In this document: positions 13,205-42,486 of the stretch, one piece after another
How positions within the stretch are numbered: position 1 is the first letter of the stretch
Layout of the letters: the number at the start of each line of letters is the position of its first letter
Origin: Candidatus Nomurabacteria bacterium
GTDB lineage: Bacteria; Patescibacteriota; Minisyncoccia; Phycocordibacterales; UBA9973
Direction: 5' to 3'
Assembly (NCBI GenBank): GCA_023898605.1
Contig: CP060230.1
Coordinates: 67,944 to 131,943, forward strand
DNA: 64,000 nt
Made by a program: the position numbers and the translations under genes
The notes under the pieces: model-generated
Seen by the model: the letters and a program-made list of their open reading frames with translations, nothing else
Database searches by the model: none
What the model was told of the DNA's origin: nothing

Positions 13205-15004
13205 ATGGATATAAATAACATAAGAAATTTCTCTATAATAGCCCACATAGATCACGGTAAATCCACTCTGGCAGACCGGTTTCTTGAAGTTACTGGTACT
13301 GTAGAAAAAAGAAAGATGAAAGACCAGGTTCTAGATTCGATGGAACTAGAAAGAGAGAGGGGAATCACGATCAAGATGCAGCCAGCCAGGATGGAATACA
13401 AACTTGGCAAAGATAAATACATTCTCAATCTTATAGACACTCCTGGACACATAGACTTCTCATATGAGGTTTCTAGGGCTATGAAGGCTGTAGAGGGTGC
13501 GATATTACTCGTAGACTCCACTCAGGGCGTTCAGGCGCAAACTATGACCACTCTAGAGATGGCCAAGAAGGCTGGGCTTGTTATAATCCCAGCTATTTCC
13601 AAGGTTGATTCGCCACTTTCTAGACCAGAAGAGGTTTCTTCTGAAATTGCAAAACTTCTAGATTGCGATCCAAAAGAGGTTATGAAGGTTTCTGGTAAAA
13701 CTGGTGAGGGCGTAGAAGATCTTCTAAGAAAGATAGTCGATACAGTACCAGCTCCTAAAAAGAGCGATACAGATATGCTCCAATCTCTAGTTTTTGATTT
13801 TAGTTACTCTAGTCACAGGGGTATCGTTGTATACATGAGAGTTTTCAGCGGTTCGGTCAAAAAGGGCGATACGCTTACATTTCTTGCTTCAAACGAGTCT
13901 TTTATCGTAAATGAAGTTGGAGTAACAAAACCAGAAGAACTACCTGTTTCTTCACTAGGTTCAGGAGAAATAGGTTATATAGTCACTGGTATCAAAAAAC
14001 CAAAGATCGCATCAGTTGGAGACACGCTTACACTAACAAAACAAAAAGCAAAACCACTTTCTGGTTACGAAAAACCAAACCCTGTTGTTTGGGCATCTAT
14101 TTTTCCGGAGAGCCAAGATGATTTTACAATACTAAGACAAGCTCTAGAGAGACTACAACTTTCTGATTCTTCACTTACTTTCGAAGAAGAATCTTCTGGA
14201 GTTTTGGGTAGAGGTTTTAGAATAGGTGTTTTGGGTATGCTTCACCTTGAAATAGTAACAGAAAGACTAAAGCGAGAGTTCAAGCTCGATCTTGTTATCA
14301 CGACTCCGTCTATAACTTATAACGTTATCAAGAAAAACGGTGAAAGCGAGATAGTTTATTCTCCTCACAAATTTCCAGATGACGGTTCTGTCAAAGAAGT
14401 TCATGAGCCTTGGGCTGATATCGTTATAATCTCTCCAGACAAATATCTGGGAACTATCTCGAGTCTACTTTTTGAACACGAAGGAGATATAACTCACACC
14501 GAAACCATGAGCGGTGGAAACGCCAAACTTTCTGTTTCTATGCCACTAAGAGAGCTTATGAGAAACTTTTTCGACAAACTAAAAAGCGCGACTCAGGGCT
14601 ACGCCTCTATATCTTATGAAATAGTTGGAGACCTGCCTGCAGACGTTGTGAGACTAGACATACTTATAAACGAAGACGTTGTTCCTGCTTTTTCTTCGGT
14701 TGTTTCTAGAAGAAGAGCATACGAAGAAGCCGAAGAAGCTGTAGAGACACTAGAGAAAATTCTTCCAAGACAACAAGTTGCCATAAAGATACAAGGTAGA
14801 GCTTTGGGTAGAATAGTTGCTTCTAGGAAGCTTTCAGCTTTCAGAAAGGACGTTACTCAGCACATGTATGGTGGAGATATCACTCGAAAAATGAAACTTA
14901 GAGAAAAACAGAAGAAAGGTAAGAAGAAAATGCAGGAAGGTGCAAAGGTAAACATACCTCACGACGTTTTCCTGAAGATGATGAGAAGGGGAGGAGATAA
15001 GTAG
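13205..15004 (+). CDS. lepA: elongation factor 4 (LepA)
   Basis: Shows IRNFSIIAHIDHGKSTLADR, DTPGHIDF and the LepA C-terminal domain. I prefer the ATG at 13205 to the TTG at 13199. Confidence 0.95.
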   Translation: MDINNIRNFSIIAHIDHGKSTLADRFLEVTGTVEKRKMKDQVLDSMELERERGITIKMQPARMEYKLGKDKYILNLIDTPGHIDFSYEVSRAMKAVEGAILLVDSTQGVQAQTMTTLEMAKKAGLVIIPAISKVDSPLSRPEEVSSEIAKLLDCDPKEVMKVSGKTGEGVEDLLRKIVDTVPAPKKSDTDMLQSLVFDFSYSSHRGIVVYMRVFSGSVKKGDTLTFLASNESFIVNEVGVTKPEELPVSSLGSGEIGYIVTGIKKPKIASVGDTLTLTKQKAKPLSGYEKPNPVVWASIFPESQDDFTILRQALERLQLSDSSLTFEEESSGVLGRGFRIGVLGMLHLEIVTERLKREFKLDLVITTPSITYNVIKKNGESEIVYSPHKFPDDGSVKEVHEPWADIVIISPDKYLGTISSLLFEHEGDITHTETMSGGNAKLSVSMPLRELMRNFFDKLKSATQGYASISYEIVGDLPADVVRLDILINEDVVPAFSSVVSRRRAYEEAEEAVETLEKILPRQQVAIKIQGRALGRIVASRKLSAFRKDVTQHMYGGDITRKMKLREKQKKGKKKMQEGAKVNIPHDVFLKMMRRGGDK

Positions 15005-15849: not shown

Positions 15850-15923
15850 AAAACTTATAAATTAATGTAGAATCAGAAAACCGGTTTATGCCGGTTTTTT
15901 GATTGAGAGAAACGCCCCCGTAG

Positions 15924-15966
15924 CCCCGACGCTATGGTCGGGGTCCATACAACTTCACTCGTCGGG
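15924..15966 (+). repeat. family-A GC hairpin module (ccccgacgctatggtcgggg...cgtcggg)
   Basis: The 27-nt string gtagccccgacgctatggtcggggtcc is shared with 16641-16667. Confidence 0.7.
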
Positions 15967-16040
15967 ATTAAATGGACCCCAGTTGTAGAGCAAAGCTCAC
16001 AACGGGGCACAGTAGAACAGTTCCGCGCGCCCCGTATCAT

Positions 16041-16112
16041 GTCTCCGTAGTTAAATGGATATAACAGCTCCGTCCTAAGGAGTAGTTGTGGGTTCGATTC
16101 CTGCCGGAGACA
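16041..16112 (+). tRNA. tRNA-Arg (anticodon CCT)
   Basis: I folded the cloverleaf by hand. The acceptor is GTCTCCG/CGGAGAC, the anticodon loop is GTCCTAA and the T loop is TTCGATT. No CCA is encoded. Confidence 0.85.
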
Positions 16113-16195
16113 CAAATTGTTAGAGACATTGATATCGGGGGGGGTTCTACTTTGTCCTTCGAAACTTTAGTGAAGAAGGAAGGAATAGTTCTGGG

Positions 16196-16224
16196 CTTGC
16201 CCTGTCTGAAATAGGCGGGGTGAA
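16196..16224 (+). repeat. family-B GC hairpin module (degenerate copy) in the T-loop position of the ghost tRNA
   Basis: cttgccctgtctgaaataggcggggtgaa compares with cttgccccgcctgaaataggcggggtgaa at the Val locus. Confidence 0.65.
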
Positions 16225-16283
16225 ATTCCTGGCGGGGGCACAAAATCTATCTACTAAACTTTATTTTTGATATAATTTAATGG

Positions 16284-16633: not shown

Positions 16634-16699
16634 GCTCAGGTAGCCCCGACGCTATGGTCGGGGTCCCGTACTTCTACAAAGTAGAACGTCGGGGCTCAG
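16634..16699 (+). pseudogene. 5' fragment of a ghost tRNA-Phe (GCTCAGGTAG[51-nt insert]CTCAG)
   Basis: Removing 16644-16694, which has ccccgacg...cgtcgggg termini, restores GCTCAGGTAGCTCAG. That string is close to the start of the intact tRNA-Phe. Confidence 0.55.
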
Positions 16700-16702
16700 A
16701 AT

Positions 16703-16963
16703 ATGGCGTGGGTGTATATATTAAAAACTAAATCTGGTAAGTTTTATATTGGTAGCACTATCAATTTAGAGCAAAGATTAAAACACCATAAAGGTGGGAA
16801 TACTCCTTCGACATATAGGTTGAAGTTTGATAGTCTTTTATTGTCTCAAGAATATGATACTTTGAAAGATGCCAGGAGTGTTGAATCAAAATTGAAAAAA
16901 CTCAAACGAAAAGATTATTTACAAAAAATTGTTGAAGATGGTTTTATTAAAATAAAACCCTAA
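16703..16963 (+). CDS. GIY-YIG nuclease family protein (86 aa)
   Basis: Shows VYILKTKSGKFYIGSTINLEQRLKHHKGG. The ATG lies 3 nt after the ghost D-arm CTCAG. Confidence 0.9.
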   Translation: MAWVYILKTKSGKFYIGSTINLEQRLKHHKGGNTPSTYRLKFDSLLLSQEYDTLKDARSVESKLKKLKRKDYLQKIVEDGFIKIKP

Positions 16964-16992
16964 CGTTGAAAATAAAAATTTGTTTACAAAGT

Positions 16993-17066
16993 GCTCGGGT
17001 AGCTCAGTTGGTTAGAGCACTCGCCTGAAGAGCGAGGTGTCGGCAGTTCGAGTCTGCCCCCGAGCA
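16993..17066 (+). tRNA. tRNA-Phe (anticodon GAA)
   Basis: The acceptor is GCTCGGG/CCCGAGC, the anticodon loop is CTGAAGA and the T loop is TTCGAGT. The flanks tttacaaagt and actttgtaaa extend the acceptor helix by 10 bp. Confidence 0.9.
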
Positions 17067-17092
17067 CTTTGTAAATAAGATTAGATGTGTAT

Positions 17093-17215
17093 GCTCAGTA
17101 CCGACGTCCCGACATGTGGTCGTCGGGAGCACGGAGAGCCGACAGAATCGTCGGCTTTGGTTAGAGCACTCGCCTGAAGAGCGAGGTGTCGGCAGTTCGA
17201 GTCTGCCCCCGAGCA
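17093..17215 (+). pseudogene. 3' part of the ghost tRNA-Phe with a ~57-nt double-hairpin insert after GCTCAG
   Basis: 17157-17216 is a 60-bp perfect repeat of 17008-17067. There is no matching 5' acceptor strand. The insert holds the hairpins tcccgac/gtcggga and gccgac/gtcggc. Confidence 0.6.
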
Positions 17216-17249
17216 CAAGATATAACCTAGTCAATTCTAATTTTAAAAA

Positions 17250-17327
17250 ATGGTACACTACACTTACATTTTAAAAAGCTTAAAGGATGGCAAGTATTAT
17301 ATAGGGTCAACCTCCGATTTGGGCTAG
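17250..17327 (+). pseudogene. truncated GIY-YIG N-terminal remnant (25 codons)
   Basis: Reads MVHYTYILKSLKDGKYYIGSTSDLG and then a stop. Confidence 0.6.
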
Positions 17328-17346: not shown

Positions 17347-17375
17347 TTGACATAAAAGTATTATTATACTATAAT
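17347..17375 (+). promoter_or_regulatory. consensus promoter TTGACA-17-TATAAT
   Basis: Both hexamers match the consensus exactly and the spacer is 17 nt. Confidence 0.65.
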
Positions 17376-17389
17376 GTTAGAGATAGTTT

Positions 17390-17914
17390 ATGATCTTTAA
17401 CTTAAAATACTTTATCATGTCGAATAATAATGAAACAGTTGAAAACCCTACCACTTCTGTAGATAAAGTGGTAATTTCAATCTCTAAACGATCGATCTGG
17501 TCATTTATTGGACTGCTTGTGGTAGCTGGCTTCAGCTATCTCCAATGGATAGGCTATTTATTGCCAACCTTTAAGCAGATATTTATTTTGATTGAGGAAG
17601 CAGATGCTTCAATTTTAAGCGTAAGCCAAATAGGGTTGATGTGGGTGCCCGTAATATCGTACGCCCTAGTGGCGTTAAATATCTGTCTTTTTTTTAATAT
17701 ATTTAAGGAATTAAAGAAAGAGAAAGGTCTCATTGCGGGTCTCATTGTGGGTCTCATTTGGGGTCTTTGGGGTCTCATTGCGGGTCTCATTGCGGGTCTC
17801 ACTGCGGGTCTCATTGTGGGTCTCATTTGGGGTCTCACTTGGGGTCTCACTTGGGGTCTCACTGCGGGTCTCATTATGGGTCTCATTATGGGTCTCAAAA
17901 ATGAGTACTCATGA
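17390..17914 (+). CDS. membrane protein with C-terminal (G-L-I/T-x) tetrapeptide repeat array
   Basis: Two N-terminal TM helices are followed by about 14 in-frame GLIAGLIVGLIWGL... repeats. Confidence 0.6.
   Translation: MIFNLKYFIMSNNNETVENPTTSVDKVVISISKRSIWSFIGLLVVAGFSYLQWIGYLLPTFKQIFILIEEADASILSVSQIGLMWVPVISYALVALNICLFFNIFKELKKEKGLIAGLIVGLIWGLWGLIAGLIAGLTAGLIVGLIWGLTWGLTWGLTAGLIMGLIMGLKNEYS
17726..17896 (+). repeat. 12-bp tandem repeat GGTCTCAYTRNG, about 14 units, in-frame
   Basis: I counted the units directly. One unit is shortened to 9 bp. Confidence 0.9.
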
Positions 17915-25644: not shown

Positions 25645-25765
25645 TGGTGGGCGATACAGGACTCGAACCTGTGGCCTTTTCAACGTCATCCCGCCTATTT
25701 AGGACGGGATAAAATGAACGCTCTAGTTCACCCCGCCTATTTCAGGCGGGGCAAGCTGAGCTAAT
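25645..25765 (-). pseudogene. 3' portion of a ghost tRNA-Val (encodes CCA) with hairpin inserts in the D loop and anticodon loop
   Basis: On the minus strand it reads ATTAGCTCAG[29-nt hairpin]CTAGAGCGTTC[27-nt hairpin insert]TGACGTTGAAAAGGCCACAGGTTCGAGTCCTGTATCGCCCACCA. Confidence 0.6.
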
Positions 25766-25992
25766 TTTTCTTTGTAATCTTTATTTTTCTTTTTTAGCCA
25801 CTTTTCGTGTTTTCTGGCTAGCTCATAATTTTTATATTCTTTGGTGTAAACTAAAACATATGGTTTTAGTTTAGAGGAGGTTTTTAATTTACCACTATTG
25901 TGTTCTTTTAATCGCCTAGTTGGATTATCAGAAATACCCACATAAAAACTTTGGTTTATTTTACTTTTTATAAGATAAACAAAGCAAGACAT
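25723..25992 (-). CDS. GIY-YIG nuclease family protein (89 aa)
   Basis: Shows FVYLIKSKINQSFYVGISDNPTRRLKEHNSG. The start codon lies 1 nt after the tRNA-Val 3' end. The last 14 codons read through the ghost D arm and hairpin. Confidence 0.85.
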   Translation of the reverse strand: MSCFVYLIKSKINQSFYVGISDNPTRRLKEHNSGKLKTSSKLKPYVLVYTKEYKNYELARKHEKWLKKKNKDYKEKLAQLAPPEIGGVN

Positions 25993-25993
25993 G

Positions 25994-26066
25994 TGAGCGA
26001 TAGAGGATTCGAACCTCTGACCTTTCCCACGTCAAGGGAACGCTCTACCGACTGAGCTAATCGCTC
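25994..26066 (-). tRNA. tRNA-Val (anticodon GAC)
   Basis: The cloverleaf folds as GAGCGAT-TA-GCTC-AGTCGGTA-GAGC-G-TTCCC-TTGACGT-GGGAA-AGGTC-AGAGG-TTCGAAT-CCTCT-ATCGCTC-A. Confidence 0.9.
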
Positions 26067-26474
26067 GCTCAAATAAAATTACTACAGTACAAATTGTATC
26101 AATAAAAAATAAAATATGCTCTACTTCACCCCGCCTATTTCAGGCGGGGCAAGCTGAGCTAATCGCTCGCTCAAATAAAATTACTACAGTACAAATTGTA
26201 TCAATAAAAAATAAAATATGCTCTACTTCACCCCGCCTATTTCAGGCGGGGCAAGCTGAGCTAATCGCTCGCTCAAATAAAATTACTACAGTACAAATTG
26301 TATCAATAAAAAATAAAATATGCTCTACTTCACCCCGCCTATTTCAGGCGGGGCAAGCTGAGCTAATCGCTCGCTCAAATAAAATTACTACAGTACAAAT
26401 TGTATCAATAAAAAATAAAATATGCTCTACTTCACCCCGCCTATTTCAGGCGGGGCAAGCTGAGCTAATCGCCC
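26051..26474 (-). repeat. four perfect 102-bp tandem units plus the ghost tRNA-Val 5' end
   Basis: Units start at 26051, 26153, 26255 and 26357, with a partial unit at 26459. On the minus strand each unit contains an AT-rich promoter-like region, GAGCGATTAGCTCAG, a 29-nt hairpin and GTAGAGC. The array ends in GGGCGATTAGCTCAG (26474-26460), which matches the ghost 3' acceptor. Confidence 0.85.
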
Positions 26475-27314: not shown

Positions 27315-27857
27315 ATGCAAAACCCAAACTTGATTATTCGGTACATTTTTCCATTGATTAATTCAAATGGAATTGACTCTAGTATTGGATTTTTGACCGA
27401 CACAGAGATACAGGGTTGTAATATACACTTTGTATCCAATTTCTTCTGGAATGAATTTTATCCCACTAAGTATAGTGGAATGGAGATTCTAGAAGAGTGC
27501 ATCAATCAGTCACTCATGGAAAATCCACGAGAAATTTTTTTGTTTCTTGTTCAGATGAAGCAGGCAGACAAACTGATTTCGCGTGAGAAAATACCCATGC
27601 CATGCATTCACCCCAAAGACATGATTCTCGGAAACACTGTTCTGGAAATTCAAAACATTTCAGAACTAAAAAAGATGAGAGGTGGAGTACCTGCTTCGAT
27701 TTCGGATATACCTTATATCGAGGTTGGCTCAAAGAGGAGAGATCATGTCATCTATCCGTTTACCTTTGAGTTCGACATTGATCCAAAAGAAGTCGGAAGG
27801 CCATTTTTTGGAATCGACAGCGTCGAATTTCCAAACCACAAAAAACAGATATCTTAA
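27315..27857 (+). CDS. hypothetical protein, paralog 1 of a tandem pair
   Basis: Shares blocks with 27944..28504: FWNEF..KYSGMEILE vs YFWKQ..KYFGMEKLE, and IPMPCIHP vs IPMPMIPP. It has its own promoter and terminator. Confidence 0.5.
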   Translation: MQNPNLIIRYIFPLINSNGIDSSIGFLTDTEIQGCNIHFVSNFFWNEFYPTKYSGMEILEECINQSLMENPREIFLFLVQMKQADKLISREKIPMPCIHPKDMILGNTVLEIQNISELKKMRGGVPASISDIPYIEVGSKRRDHVIYPFTFEFDIDPKEVGRPFFGIDSVEFPNHKKQIS

Positions 27858-27864
27858 ATCACAA

Positions 27865-27888
27865 GCACCCCACGTCGGGGTGCTTTTC
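27865..27888 (+). terminator. terminator hairpin gcaccccacgtcggggtgc plus T-run, fused to the next -35 TTGACA
   Basis: Read directly from the sequence. A near-identical module lies at 28511-28534. Confidence 0.7.
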
Positions 27889-27943
27889 TTTGACAAGAAA
27901 TATTATATGGGTGTATATTCAGAAATGAATAAAACCCTCAGTT

Positions 27944-28504
27944 ATGAAAGAAACATATCTCATTTTGAGACAACTGTACTTTACCAGTATAGGAGAACCT
28001 TATATCTTCGTAAGCGAAGATGAACTTTTCCACGGAAGGAATTTTAACACCAGGGTTGAAGAAATTTATATTGTTTCTGAATACTTTTGGAAACAAAACC
28101 CTCATAAGTACTTTGGAATGGAAAAATTAGAATCTTTAATTTCTGAACGCGTTGAAGATCATAGGTCTGCACGTATTATTTTTTTCTTTATGGAGAAAAA
28201 TTATCTTGATAAAATTATCAAGAGATCTTGTATTCCTATGCCAATGATTCCTCCCGGGTGTATTGCCTACGGTATTGATATTCGCCCCATGCTTTTTTAT
28301 TCTATAGAAATCGATAAAAATCTTCGCATCGGACATATCGGAGACAAAGAAGCACCCATTGTGTGGACAGATGAGGAAAAACCAAGACCTTTGGTTGGAT
28401 CAGTATTTTTCAATTATGATTCCATGTTAAAATATCCGGACGGCATAATACCTTTGTATATAGCTGGTCCAGGCTTCAATGACGCTCGCTTTAAGGTTAT
28501 CTGA
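27944..28504 (+). CDS. hypothetical protein, paralog 2 of a tandem pair
   Basis: See the evidence for paralog 1. Its 5' region is nearly identical over 35 nt to that of paralog 1. Confidence 0.5.
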   Translation: MKETYLILRQLYFTSIGEPYIFVSEDELFHGRNFNTRVEEIYIVSEYFWKQNPHKYFGMEKLESLISERVEDHRSARIIFFFMEKNYLDKIIKRSCIPMPMIPPGCIAYGIDIRPMLFYSIEIDKNLRIGHIGDKEAPIVWTDEEKPRPLVGSVFFNYDSMLKYPDGIIPLYIAGPGFNDARFKVI

Positions 28505-28510
28505 AATAGT

Positions 28511-28534
28511 GCACCCCGCGTCGGGGTGCTTTTC
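28511..28534 (+). terminator. terminator hairpin gcaccccgcgtcggggtgc plus T-run
   Basis: Read directly from the sequence. Confidence 0.7.
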
Positions 28535-42206: not shown

Positions 42207-42484
42207 ATCCCGTTAGAGATTAATCATGTTTTATGTTTACGTATTACAGAGTAAAAAAGACGGGAAAATGTATACAGGAAGTACCAAAGATCTTCGGAAG
42301 CGCTTTTTGCAACACGAAAAAGGATTATCAACTTGGACAAAAGGAAGAGGTCCATTTATAATGGTTTATTATGAAGCATGTCTCAATGAGCAAGATGCTC
42401 GGTCGCGTGAGACATATTTAAAATCAGGTATGGGAAAGCGTTATCTAAAAAATAGACTTAAGCGCTTCCTATCTCTAACGGGAT
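42207..42484 (+). mobile_element. minimal GIY-YIG element bounded by perfect 14-bp terminal inverted repeats
   Basis: atcccgttagagat (42207-42220) is the reverse complement of atctctaacgggat (42471-42484). ATGAA/TGAA is present on both flanks. Confidence 0.65.
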
Positions 42485-42486
42485 GA
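42226..42486 (+). CDS. GIY-YIG nuclease family protein (86 aa)
   Basis: Shows FYVYVLQSKKDGKMYTGSTKDLRKRFLQHEKG. Confidence 0.9.
   Translation: MFYVYVLQSKKDGKMYTGSTKDLRKRFLQHEKGLSTWTKGRGPFIMVYYEACLNEQDARSRETYLKSGMGKRYLKNRLKRFLSLTG

Follow-up and report, generated by a model that had tools for sequence, protein, structure and literature searches.

SegB is a free-standing GIY-YIG endonuclease encoded within the tRNA gene cluster of bacteriophage T4. Its site contains a conserved tRNA motif, it recognizes the T-psi-C motif and cuts at tRNA 3' ends, many tRNA genes are cleaved, and the enzyme drives the inheritance of its own gene together with the flanking tRNA genes (PMC2330249). According to a further report, SegB promotes segmental amplification of anti-defence loci in a phage (T6) that is itself targeted via tRNA-Tyr cleavage (PMC13096335). 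A second precedent is provided by fungal mitochondrial gene hybrids, which have been described for atp6 of Allomyces macrogynus and for atp6, atp9, cox2, and nad3 of Glomus, the mobile open reading frame (ORF) in Glomus atp9 encoding a GIY-YIG enzyme (PMC3630166). Here we describe a tRNA-Phe locus within a 64,000-nucleotide stretch of a Candidatus Nomurabacteria genome (GenBank assembly GCA_023898605.1, contig CP060230.1, positions 67,944 to 131,943; this whole stretch is called the window, and positions are counted from its first nucleotide). At this locus incomplete or interrupted tRNA copies, here termed ghosts, GC-rich hairpins, a GIY-YIG ORF, and an intact tRNA-Phe gene follow one another. 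The locus probably represents a selfish cassette, resident in tRNA genes, that carries a free-standing GIY-YIG homing endonuclease and in which a tRNA segment is duplicated and end-processing takes the place of splicing. Four tRNA loci are present in the window, and the Arg and Val loci resemble the Phe locus; the nuclease genes at Phe and Val belong to two clades, referred to as clades A and B, respectively.

The likeness to SegB consists of a GIY-YIG gene situated among tRNA genes, and of the precedents for GIY-YIG enzymes directed at such genes SegB comes nearest. The reported SegB-driven amplification also recalls a 102-bp tandem array at the Val locus of the window. SegB differs in being a phage enzyme encoded between intact tRNA genes at a locus without ghosts, hairpin module, or ORF-tRNA overlap, and in cutting tRNA 3' ends, whereas the presumed target here is the D arm; SegB is also a larger, multi-domain protein. 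The gene hybrids are closest in logic, since in them an endonuclease ORF is accompanied by a duplicate terminal segment that replaces the native one and the native end is displaced. They differ in affecting mitochondrial protein genes through an in-frame C-terminal fusion, whereas the cassette described here has a bacterial tRNA target, duplicates either the 5' end (clade A) or the sequence from the D loop to the 3' end (clade B), carries a hairpin module, and would be released by end-processing. The layouts of both clades appear to display the defining features of gene hybrids, as an analogy and not as membership. In the literature that was found, coverage of which is incomplete, so that an earlier report elsewhere is possible, there was no published description of an architecture combining tRNA, GIY-YIG gene, and hairpins in bacteria.

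Integrative elements, too, insert in tRNA genes and bring with them a 3' segment that replaces that of the tRNA, and split and multi-intron tRNA genes occur in archaea. With the former the Phe locus shares the tRNA gene target, a regenerating segment, and a displaced fragment that persists as a direct repeat, and with archaeal tRNA introns it shares positions in the D, anticodon, and T loops. Unlike either, it presents tiny nuclease-encoding elements and no recombinase, bulge-helix-bulge, or splicing-type maturation. Intron-borne enzymes of the I-TevI type belong to the same nuclease superfamily and likewise place a selfish gene in an essential gene without destroying its function. Unlike a group I intron, however, the Phe locus contains no ribozyme and has no room for a ribozyme core, and its protein is a catalytic domain only. 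The tRNA introns known from Patescibacteria are group I introns located at position 35/36 in the anticodon loop, and most lack endonuclease genes (PMC13011429). A fractured gene is a split-intein gene broken by a free-standing endonuclease gene (PMC2677866). It resembles our locus in that a conserved gene is split with a free-standing homing-endonuclease gene between the parts, and differs from it in relying on protein splicing in trans, whereas at our locus both halves are dead and the function falls to an additional complete copy.

The Phe locus lies on the plus strand and begins with a 5' ghost, read directly from the sequence, that comprises tRNA-Phe positions 1-10 (GCTCAGGTAG; 16634-16643) and differs from the intact tRNA-Phe by a single base change, A5 for G5. 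Between tRNA positions 10 and 11 is a GC-rich double-hairpin module of 51 nt (16644-16694), set in a window with a GC content of 36.7%. The termini of the module are CCCCGACG and CGTCGGGG; hairpin 1 reads CCCCGAC-GCTATG-GTCGGGG, hairpin 2 is a degenerate TCCCG(T)AC...CGTCGGGG with an inner stem TTCTAC/GTAGAA, and the DNA fold of the whole has a z of -3.8. The ghost continues with tRNA positions 11-15 (CTCAG; 16695-16699), followed by aat and, at 16703, by the ATG of a clade A GIY-YIG nuclease gene (16703-16963; Pfam PF01541) that encodes a single-domain protein of 86 aa. The 5' ghost is broken twice, by the hairpin module past position 10 and by the ORF past position 15. Downstream of the ORF stands an intact tRNA-Phe(GAA) (16993-17066, or 17067; ARAGORN; Rfam, 69.5 bits) between the arms of an inverted repeat, the left arm (16980-16992) prolonging the acceptor helix and the right arm (17067-17078) matching, at all but one base, the reverse complement of the flank upstream. 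Counted together with the acceptor stem, the arms (16980-16999 and 17059-17078) are 20 nt long and 95% complementary, 13 bp being contributed by the flanks, and the DNA fold of the repeat-flanked tRNA has a z of -7.3.

Beyond the right arm lies a second ghost. It consists of a D-arm remnant, GCTCAG (17093-17098), whose acceptor 5' strand is lost; a second hairpin module of 58 nt, degenerate or nested, inserted in the D loop between positions 15 and 16 (17099-17156; stems TCCCGAC..GTCGGGA and GCCGAC..GTCGGC; fold z of -3.3); and a 3' part that runs from the D loop to the tRNA 3' end (17157-17216). The 3' part is identical at 60/60 positions to 17008-17067, and Rfam returned for it only a partial tRNA match (model positions 9-63, 31.9 bits). 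The locus closes with a 25-codon N-terminal stub of a second, clade-A-like GIY-YIG gene (17250-17327; MVHYTYILKSLKDGKYYIGSTSDLG, then stop), which scores 23.3 bits against the Pfam GIY-YIG model (cut-off, 22.6; E = 8e-5) and E = 0.01 in tblastn and resembles the P0025/P0033 subgroup in the homologue alignment.

An earlier note on this DNA, made from the sequence alone, had proposed this succession of ghost, GIY-YIG ORF, intact tRNA, ghost, and GIY-YIG stub, and all of these elements were verified by sequence. Some details were adjusted. GCTCAG and a hairpin insert do precede the 60-bp copy, the former one base away from the position implied and the latter 58 nt long rather than about 57. The acceptor helix is extended by complementary flanks as the note had it, by 13 bp with one mismatch as opposed to 10 bp. 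The interruption after position 15 is present, being made by the ORF in the 5' ghost and by the hairpin in the second ghost, while the hairpin of the 5' ghost sits after position 10. Two ghost parts exist as described, but A5 in the 5' ghost does not pair with C68 in the 3' ghost, so that the two are probably separate and not halves of one split gene.

Neither ARAGORN nor Rfam called any hairpin-bearing copy a full or an intron-containing tRNA, and no covariance model accepted these copies as tRNAs with known introns; acceptance would, according to the earlier note, have weighed against its interpretation. Rfam searches of the window (gathering threshold), of the locus (E <= 10), and of nine related loci assigned the inserts to no intron or ribozyme family and returned tRNAs only, apart from RNase P and rRNA elsewhere in the window. 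A group I intron ribozyme core around the ORF was likewise absent by Rfam at both gathering and E-value thresholds, and the interval from one ghost to the other is taken up by the ORF and the intact tRNA. The Phe locus looks like a standard clade A cassette, a later duplication-and-hit event, and the remnant of a second clade-A-like gene; two successive events are suggested because the series of ORF, inverted-repeat tRNA, and disrupted second copy recurs as a module of its own in six other loci.

In a survey of 265 tRNAs for acceptor helices extended by at least 6 bp through their flanks, nine such tRNAs were found, eight of them directly downstream of a clade A ORF, and seven of these eight, the window included, are followed by a near-identical second tRNA copy with a hairpin module in the D arm. 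The second copies lack part of the acceptor 5' strand, and six analogous loci show similarly truncated starts. The arms of the inverted repeat vary between loci, each being the reverse complement of local upstream sequence. The inverted repeat may therefore be the scar of templated synthesis, by snap-back or template switching, at the acceptor palindrome during duplication.

The Phe locus is present in colinear form, without gaps and at 99.2-99.5% identity, in independent assemblies from other samples, which excludes a misassembly; three of these sequences span it (L196, L199, and L200), and two cover parts of it before their contigs end (L197 and L198). Comparison of the sibling haplotypes revealed 13 differing sites in the 359 nt of 16798-17156 versus one in 2191 flanking nt (Fisher, 9e-11). 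The tract of divergence stops precisely where the second hairpin module meets the 60-nt repeat, and the 5' ghost and its hairpin module are unchanged. Within the tract, the ORF shows five synonymous codon changes and one nonsynonymous change, and the intact tRNA-Phe carries a compensatory pair of T-stem substitutions (17045 A>G and 17055 T>C), the ghost copy retaining the old state. Because the ORF changes are mostly synonymous and the compensatory pair occurs in the intact copy only, selection acts on the ORF and the intact tRNA and not on the ghost, and the intact copy is the functional one. The pattern fits recombinational exchange, with the cassette exchanged, or diverged, as a block; substitutions are clustered in lepA of the same contigs as well. 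Against L196, the differences in lepA (13501-13549 and 14251-14671) are clustered, synonymous, and spaced in multiples of three, which suggests that short recombination tracts from diverged strains are common in the population. Contigs of L197, L198, and L201 end in the first hairpin module (window position 16659) or in the intact tRNA (about 17031-17044); repeats thus fragment assemblies inside the locus, and such loci are probably under-reported.

By its genes and its best LepA relatives, the window falls in the class Paceibacteria of the ultra-small Patescibacteria. Related bacteria were examined in two sets, one of 80 Paceibacteria loci fetched around lepA (1.34 Mb) and one of 80 homologue loci from a metagenomic scan with the family profile, 78 of which had enough upstream sequence. 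In the lepA set the order lepA, (Gly), Arg(CCT), small ORF, Phe(GAA) was kept in about 40 genomes, and a GIY-YIG ORF was located at Phe in three of these. With the window counted, the block occupies 4/41 syntenic Phe loci, so that the presence/absence polymorphism on which the earlier note had made its interpretation depend was found. All five GIY-YIG matches in the lepA set lay within 100 nt of a tRNA. Three loci (L040, L030, and L060) displayed the layout of the window, with the tRNA's own 5' end, one or more hairpins, the rest of the D arm, the ORF, and the intact tRNA, and the closest protein homologues were encoded upstream of tRNA-Ile, Arg(TCT), Asn, and Phe in the same order of ghost, hairpin module, and ORF. 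The recurrent clade A unit is a tRNA 5' end broken at 10/11 or 15/16 by a double-hairpin module, an ORF of about 86 aa, and a complete tRNA at or overlapping the ORF stop. It shares with homing genes a sporadic presence at homologous loci and a position in or next to a conserved target sequence.

An intact tRNA on the same strand was found within 120 nt of the ORF stop for 69/80 metagenomic homologues, and in three of the other 11 the contig left no room for one. The tRNA started between -10 and +20 nt relative to the stop in 60 homologues and was overlapped by the ORF by 9-10 nt in 26; in L083 and L086, which were read at sequence level, the stop codon TAG is T8-A9-G10 of the tRNA. The adjoining tRNAs represent 16 anticodon species. 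A CCGAC..GTCGG hairpin was situated within 130 nt upstream of the ATG in 72/78 homologues, and in 53/78 cassettes the first 9 nt of the adjacent tRNA were copied upstream with at most two mismatches. Bases past the module match the D arm of the particular target tRNA in other loci. Identity between ghost and intact tRNA begins at tRNA position +1, with no shared flank base at all in 33/49 loci, and breaks off at positions 10-12 in 27 cases and at 15 in 7; the ghost sometimes derives from another isoacceptor (L149 and L161). The adjacency in 69/80 homologues and the breakpoints at positions 10-12 or 15 bear out the argument of the earlier note for site-specific invasion over random decay.

Among the 176 tRNAs of the lepA loci and the window, about 17 were preceded within 700 nt by an exact repeat of the 9-mer at their own 5' end (about 0.5 expected), and about 20 were followed within 700 nt by an exact repeat of the 11-mer at their own 3' end (about 0.03 expected), so the structure exceeds chance. 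Nearest-neighbour nucleases shared a target in 24/62 cases versus 8% expected, and isoacceptor switches were seen at 78-85% identity. Pseudogenes exist as well, as illustrated by an in-frame stop in L060 and by the stub in the window. Two explanations of these patterns were considered and set aside. Classical target-site duplication by staggered cuts is not the general mechanism, as ghost identity does not reach into the flank in 33/49 loci. Immunity through D-loop variants was suggested by the lepA set, in which 3/3 ORF-adjoining Phe tRNAs are non-canonical versus about 8/34 of those without an ORF, and was rejected since at least half of the further metagenomic Phe cassettes are canonical.

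The hairpins have the attributes of a conserved, covarying module that, judging from sequence comparison, is probably mobile in its own right. The family consensus is NNCCGAC-G-(loop/extra stem)-GTCGGNN NNCCGAC-(loop/extra stem)-C-GTCGGNN. In 78 distinct modules with CCGACG...CGTCGG termini, the outer two base pairs were paired in 149/156 cells for hairpin 1 and 150/156 for hairpin 2; a column-shuffle control averaged 98 and 94, respectively, and went no higher than 114 and 112. Each hairpin uses at least five pair types (CC/GG, TC/GA, GG/CC, AG/CT, and others), and the structure is thus kept by compensatory change. Hairpin 1 always has an extra G past CCGAC and hairpin 2 usually an extra C before GTCGG, bulges that give the module a two-fold strand symmetry. 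A model with a single long-range helix was rejected in favor of two hairpins, because the outer pairs (CC/GG, TC/GA) covary inside each hairpin and not across; unlike the two-hairpin model, the minimum-energy fold of the degenerate copy in the window does use an outer helix. Insertions fall into two classes, at 10/11 in 48 loci and at 15/16 in 14 loci, and the class tracks the nuclease subclade in 50/55 cases versus 63% expected, each nuclease clade having its own hairpin type. No target-site duplication was seen at the module junctions of class I or II. In many loci the 3' arm of hairpin 2 places a G-rich, Shine-Dalgarno-like stretch 6-12 nt before the ATG.

Modules are nested in each other's loops in at least 12 of the 78 cases and occupy the D, anticodon, and T loops of ghost tRNA copies. 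Modules unaccompanied by an ORF were observed within a ghost of tRNA-Val, behind the stop codon of lepA, and in the interior of ORFs. Within the 64-kb window, all hairpins of these families sit in tRNA loci. Elsewhere, one module (L040, 2520-2572) lies inside a low-complexity protein-coding region, another (L084-L086, 731-771) lies in the 3' end of ruvX, where the ORF is longer than in L083, and a third (L062, 11848-11888) is located directly past the lepA stop codon. A distinct arrangement occurs at 4414-4850 of L015, in which the anticodon loop of a full-length ghost tRNA-Trp is occupied by a CCCCGTCAC/GTGACGGGG hairpin, a GIY-YIG ORF begins at the 3' end of the ghost, and an intact tRNA-Trp follows. 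TCCA stands on either side of the hairpin and may be a 4-bp target duplication, the sole case.

GC-rich palindromic repeats of other kinds include REP (repetitive extragenic palindromic) elements and their paired form REPIN, which are associated with RAYT transposases, the GC clusters of yeast mitochondria, and the double-hairpin elements of Allomyces. The modules resemble REP/RAYT systems and double-hairpin elements in being short, GC-rich, multi-copy hairpins in an AT-rich genome, sometimes in inverted pairs, and linked to a nuclease gene. They differ in that the linked gene encodes a GIY-YIG nuclease in place of a Y1 transposase and in that they concentrate in tRNA-gene loops. Like REP elements and miniature inverted-repeat transposable elements (MITEs), they have multi-copy terminal inverted repeats at unrelated sites; the target duplication and the transposase of such elements were not found. 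In the loci examined there was no evidence of hundreds of dispersed hairpin copies.

The 86-aa protein encoded at 16703-16963 matches Pfam PF01541 with E = 4e-14 and 53 bits (cut-off, 22.6), and the same model also matches the Val ORF, a third ORF in the window, and the stub. Residues Y5, Y15, G17, R25, H29, and E61 are invariant across 31 homologues and are of the catalytic type, as mapped onto the catalytic residues of I-TevI. The closest solved structure is UPF0213 BH0048, and Slx1, UvrC-N, and I-TevI are more distant; the nearest entries, 1zg2 and 1ywl, are uncharacterized UPF0213 proteins. TIGR01453 matched far under its cut-off (25.7 versus 56 bits) and over residues 2-30 only. With a catalytic domain and no further domain in its 86 aa, the protein does not have the I-TevI/Seg-type architecture. 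The codon changes between sibling strains show purifying selection on the ORF, and the protein looks active. A 100%-identical GIY-YIG protein is on record at NCBI from a Candidatus Nomurabacteria metagenome-assembled genome (P0001), although an exact-match look-up of the sequence retrieved nothing. A phage origin was considered and rejected: tblastn of the protein against 50,697 phage records gave no match, and the hairpin pattern in viral contigs yielded only chance matches in GC-rich DNA.

The 64-kb window holds several paralogous GIY-YIG copies. The Val locus (25645-26474, minus strand), of clade B, is interrupted at the same tRNA region as Phe, as the earlier note had recognized, with a hairpin in the D loop and with the layout mirrored. 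It starts at the 5' side with a resident ghost, GGGCGATTAGCTCAG, and a D-loop hairpin, CCCCGCC/GGCGGGG. An array (26052-26472, minus strand) built from 4.1 copies, 100% identical, of a 102-bp unit terminates with the intact tRNA-Val(GAC) (26066-25993, minus strand; ARAGORN); each unit is the tRNA-Val 5' part with its D-loop hairpin and a 70-nt spacer, and L192 has two units. The ATG of the Val GIY-YIG ORF (25992-25723, minus strand; Pfam GIY-YIG) abuts the tRNA 3' end, and past the ORF come TTAGCTCAG, a hairpin, and what is left of the resident tRNA, up to its terminal ...ATCGCCCACCA. The ends of the resident ghost, GGGCGAT and ATCGCCCACCA, pair together. Compensatory changes in the acceptor and T stems distinguish the intact tRNA-Val from the ghost, in the window and likewise in L193; ghost and intact gene thus represent two functional alleles, the intact one being a replacement and not a decayed twin. 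Homologues of the Val ORF at Val (L192 and L193) and at Phe (L194) exhibit the same mirror layout of intact tRNA, ATG directly after it, hairpin, and the remainder of the tRNA copy. In these three loci the last codons of the clade B ORF are TTAGCTCAG together with the CCCCGCC/GGCGGGG hairpin, and the ghost 3' part in L194 is identical to the intact gene.

At the Arg locus (15914-16240, plus strand) an intact tRNA-Arg(CCT) (16041-16112) is nested in a ghost, and there is no ORF. The ghost ends pair, GCCCCCG (15914-15920) with CGGGGGC (16233-16239), and the ghost contains three different hairpin inserts, including hairpin 1 of the Phe ghost and a hairpin of the Val type (16196-16224). A 27-nt sequence that includes hairpin 1 is identical between the Arg ghost (15920-15946) and the Phe ghost (16640-16666). 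The flanks of the intact tRNA-Arg are partly complementary (16005-16018 with 16144-16157).

We propose the following model for the cassette. The nuclease would cut unoccupied tRNA genes in the D arm, and the cassette would be copied in as the double-strand break is repaired with an occupied allele as template, the duplicated tRNA segment regenerating the essential tRNA beside the ORF. The ORF and the tRNA would be transcribed together, and the tRNA would be freed from the ORF-bearing transcript by RNase P in clade A or by 3' processing in clade B; a tRNA freed by end-processing would not need splicing. The hairpin module would interrupt the ghost at the presumed target site, and its G-rich 3' arm before the ATG might, speculatively, limit translation. 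In the window a second round may have duplicated the ORF-adjoining tRNA and left the templated inverted-repeat scar, after which the downstream copy would have gained a D-loop hairpin module, with the remnant of a second GIY-YIG gene behind it.

Several observations weigh against this model. The D arm of the intact tRNA is uninterrupted, so that the model does not account for the immunity of an occupied locus, nor does it account for the source of the matching tRNA 5' segment upon a change of target tRNA. When near-identical strains were sought by exact-protein look-ups of the two genes next to the locus, no empty site was found and all alleles returned were occupied, in two cassette haplotypes; presence and absence were seen only between genomes at about 60-67% LepA identity. 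The modules that lack an ORF or lie outside tRNA genes suggest that hairpins are able to move alone. The protein is without the DNA-binding domains of I-TevI or Seg-type homing enzymes, so that sequence-specific recognition is putative. Finally, a consensus promoter scan upstream of the 5' ghost gave nothing convincing in favor of co-transcription. The only perfect promoter, TTGACA-17-TATAAT at 17347-17375, serves the next gene (17390-17914).

An alternative gives priority to the hairpins. They would be the primary mobile agents, similar to MITEs or REPINs, entering loops that form when DNA is single-stranded, those of the D arm, anticodon arm, and T arm of tRNA genes among them. The GIY-YIG protein would be a structure-specific mobilizing nuclease, the counterpart of RAYT transposases for REP elements, and not a classical homing enzyme with sequence specificity. 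Pairs of ghost and intact tRNA would persist since only cells with a duplicated tRNA outlive a hit. This explanation overlaps the homing model and does not contradict it. The solitary modules in the tRNA-Val ghost, after the lepA stop, and inside ORFs speak for it, as do the nesting of modules, the occupation of three different ghost loops, the stem covariation and two-fold strand symmetry, and the specificity of hairpin type for each nuclease clade. The protein has no DNA-binding domain, and after UPF0213 its nearest solved relatives include the structure-specific Slx1. Nevertheless, most insertions are without a target-site duplication, hairpins lacking an ORF could be cassette remnants, the restriction of such hairpins to tRNA loci in the window runs counter to it, and the precise ORF-tRNA join, with T8-A9-G10 as the stop, is not predicted, and we consider this explanation unlikely, if still worth serious attention. 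A related and bolder idea, toward which we are somewhat better disposed while still leaning against it, is that hairpins and single-domain GIY-YIG protein together might form a new class of mobile element whose nuclease reads DNA structure (hairpin loops such as the cloverleaf loops of tRNA genes in single-stranded DNA) and not sequence. The nuclease would drive both the modules and its own gene into tRNA loops, and the element would persist in an essential single-copy gene through duplication of a tRNA segment, with RNase P or 3' processing standing in for splicing. If true, it would be the GIY-YIG counterpart of REPIN/RAYT and a third way, besides introns and inteins, to parasitize essential genes, and it would have shaped roughly one in five Paceibacteria tRNA loci.

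The remaining explanations do away with a mobile element of this kind. That the ORF and hairpins constitute a domesticated host module, either a regulator or processing signal of tRNA transcripts or a repair nuclease, with the tRNA fragments as by-products of local tandem duplication, would agree with purifying selection on the ORF, with a possible regulatory role of the G-rich, Shine-Dalgarno-like hairpin arm located 6-12 nt ahead of the ATG in many loci, and with the confinement of sibling substitutions to 16798-17156 while the 5' ghost and its module stayed unchanged. We regard it as improbable in view of the patchy block at 4/41 syntenic Phe loci, the closely related proteins found at different tRNAs with at least 16 anticodon species, the pseudogenes and stubs (L060 and the window), and the several paralogous copies in one 64-kb window. 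It is more improbable still that the hairpin-bearing copies are functional, either as tRNAs with a new kind of short intron or as split tRNA halves joined as RNA. The inserts do lie in loops, as archaeal tRNA introns do, their removal restores a near-perfect tRNA, and Patescibacteria are rich in tRNA group I introns (PMC13011429), but the known Patescibacteria introns are group I at position 35/36 (PMC13011429) and no ribozyme core is present here. In addition, an intact copy stands beside every hairpin-bearing copy whose flanks were read, covariance models accepted none of them and no intron family was detected, and most ghosts are truncated, 5' ghosts stopping at positions 15-33 and second ghosts lacking the acceptor 5' strand. 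The compensatory change in the intact copy only and the mismatch of A5 with C68 between ghosts also argue against function. Least credible of all, to the point of being almost negligible, is that the duplicated tRNA ends are attL/attR-type scars of integrase-mediated elements. Direct repeats from the T loop to the 3' end do occur 95-190 nt downstream of about 20 tRNAs in related loci, and the logic of a replacement tRNA segment is the same; yet no integrase is nearby, the segment duplicated at Phe is the 5' end up to the D arm, and the elements, at 60-450 nt, encode a GIY-YIG nuclease and not a recombinase.

The finding itself is real, recurrent, and structured, and the homing mechanism is plausible. 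In the literature that was found, the target, the host, and the hairpin partner are not described for a free-standing homing cassette with gene-segment duplication. Ghost ends accompany about 20% of the tRNA genes in the sampled loci, and if the homing model is correct, tRNA genes of the Candidate Phyla Radiation (CPR) are a major habitat of a previously unrecognized family of nuclease cassettes. A selfish nuclease would then occupy an essential RNA gene without a ribozyme or an intein, by means of segment duplication and host tRNA end-processing. The annotation of tRNAs is affected through ghost copies, partial Rfam matches, and contig breaks at repeats, and the cassettes bear on tRNA allele replacement and horizontal transfer in reduced genomes. 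Nucleases of 86 aa that may recognize tRNA-gene sequence or structure are of interest for tool discovery, and the co-evolving double-hairpin module offers a handle on how a GIY-YIG protein consisting of only a catalytic domain finds its target.

A third GIY-YIG ORF of 86 aa (42226-42486, plus strand; Pfam E = 6e-16) adjoins no tRNA. An inverted repeat of 12 bp, TCCCGTTAGAGA / TCTCTAACGGGA, brackets this ORF, whose neighbours are a GatB/YqeY-like gene on one side and a gene for a membrane protein on the other. The gene past the Phe locus (17390-17914, plus strand) encodes a membrane protein with a GL(I/T)xGL repeat region and has an internal repeat of about 100 nt (17726-17897, 89% identity). 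At 27315-28530 (plus strand), two tandem paralogous ORFs of 180 and 186 aa are each followed by a near-identical hairpin, GCACCCC(A/G)CGTCGGGGTGC.

Two other structured families were noted near tRNAs. Many Paceibacteria tRNAs (Gly, Trp, Arg, and Phe) are followed by a second, degenerate copy made up of the acceptor 5' strand, one hairpin, the T stem, a T-loop insert, and the tRNA 3' end (L007, 12339-12530 and, on the minus strand, 534-380; L023, 12342-12560; L074, 13423-13610; L017, 13141-13375; L037, 12426-12670; L079, 12595-12820). No ORF and no Rfam family match were found at these loci. The T-loop insert, of about 75-90 nt, is conserved as ..GAATCGAAAGGCTTTTC-hairpin-GAAAAGCACCTGGCTAAGTAGTAGCCGATTC.., and its stems covary between loci. 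The other GC-rich structured family lies downstream of tRNAs, with GGGGTCGCGA-hairpin-(T)TGTGACC placed right before the repeated tRNA 3' end (L030, 20900-20990; L040, 15420-15650; L083, 2830-2990; L019, 14680-14870; L034, 4390-4560).

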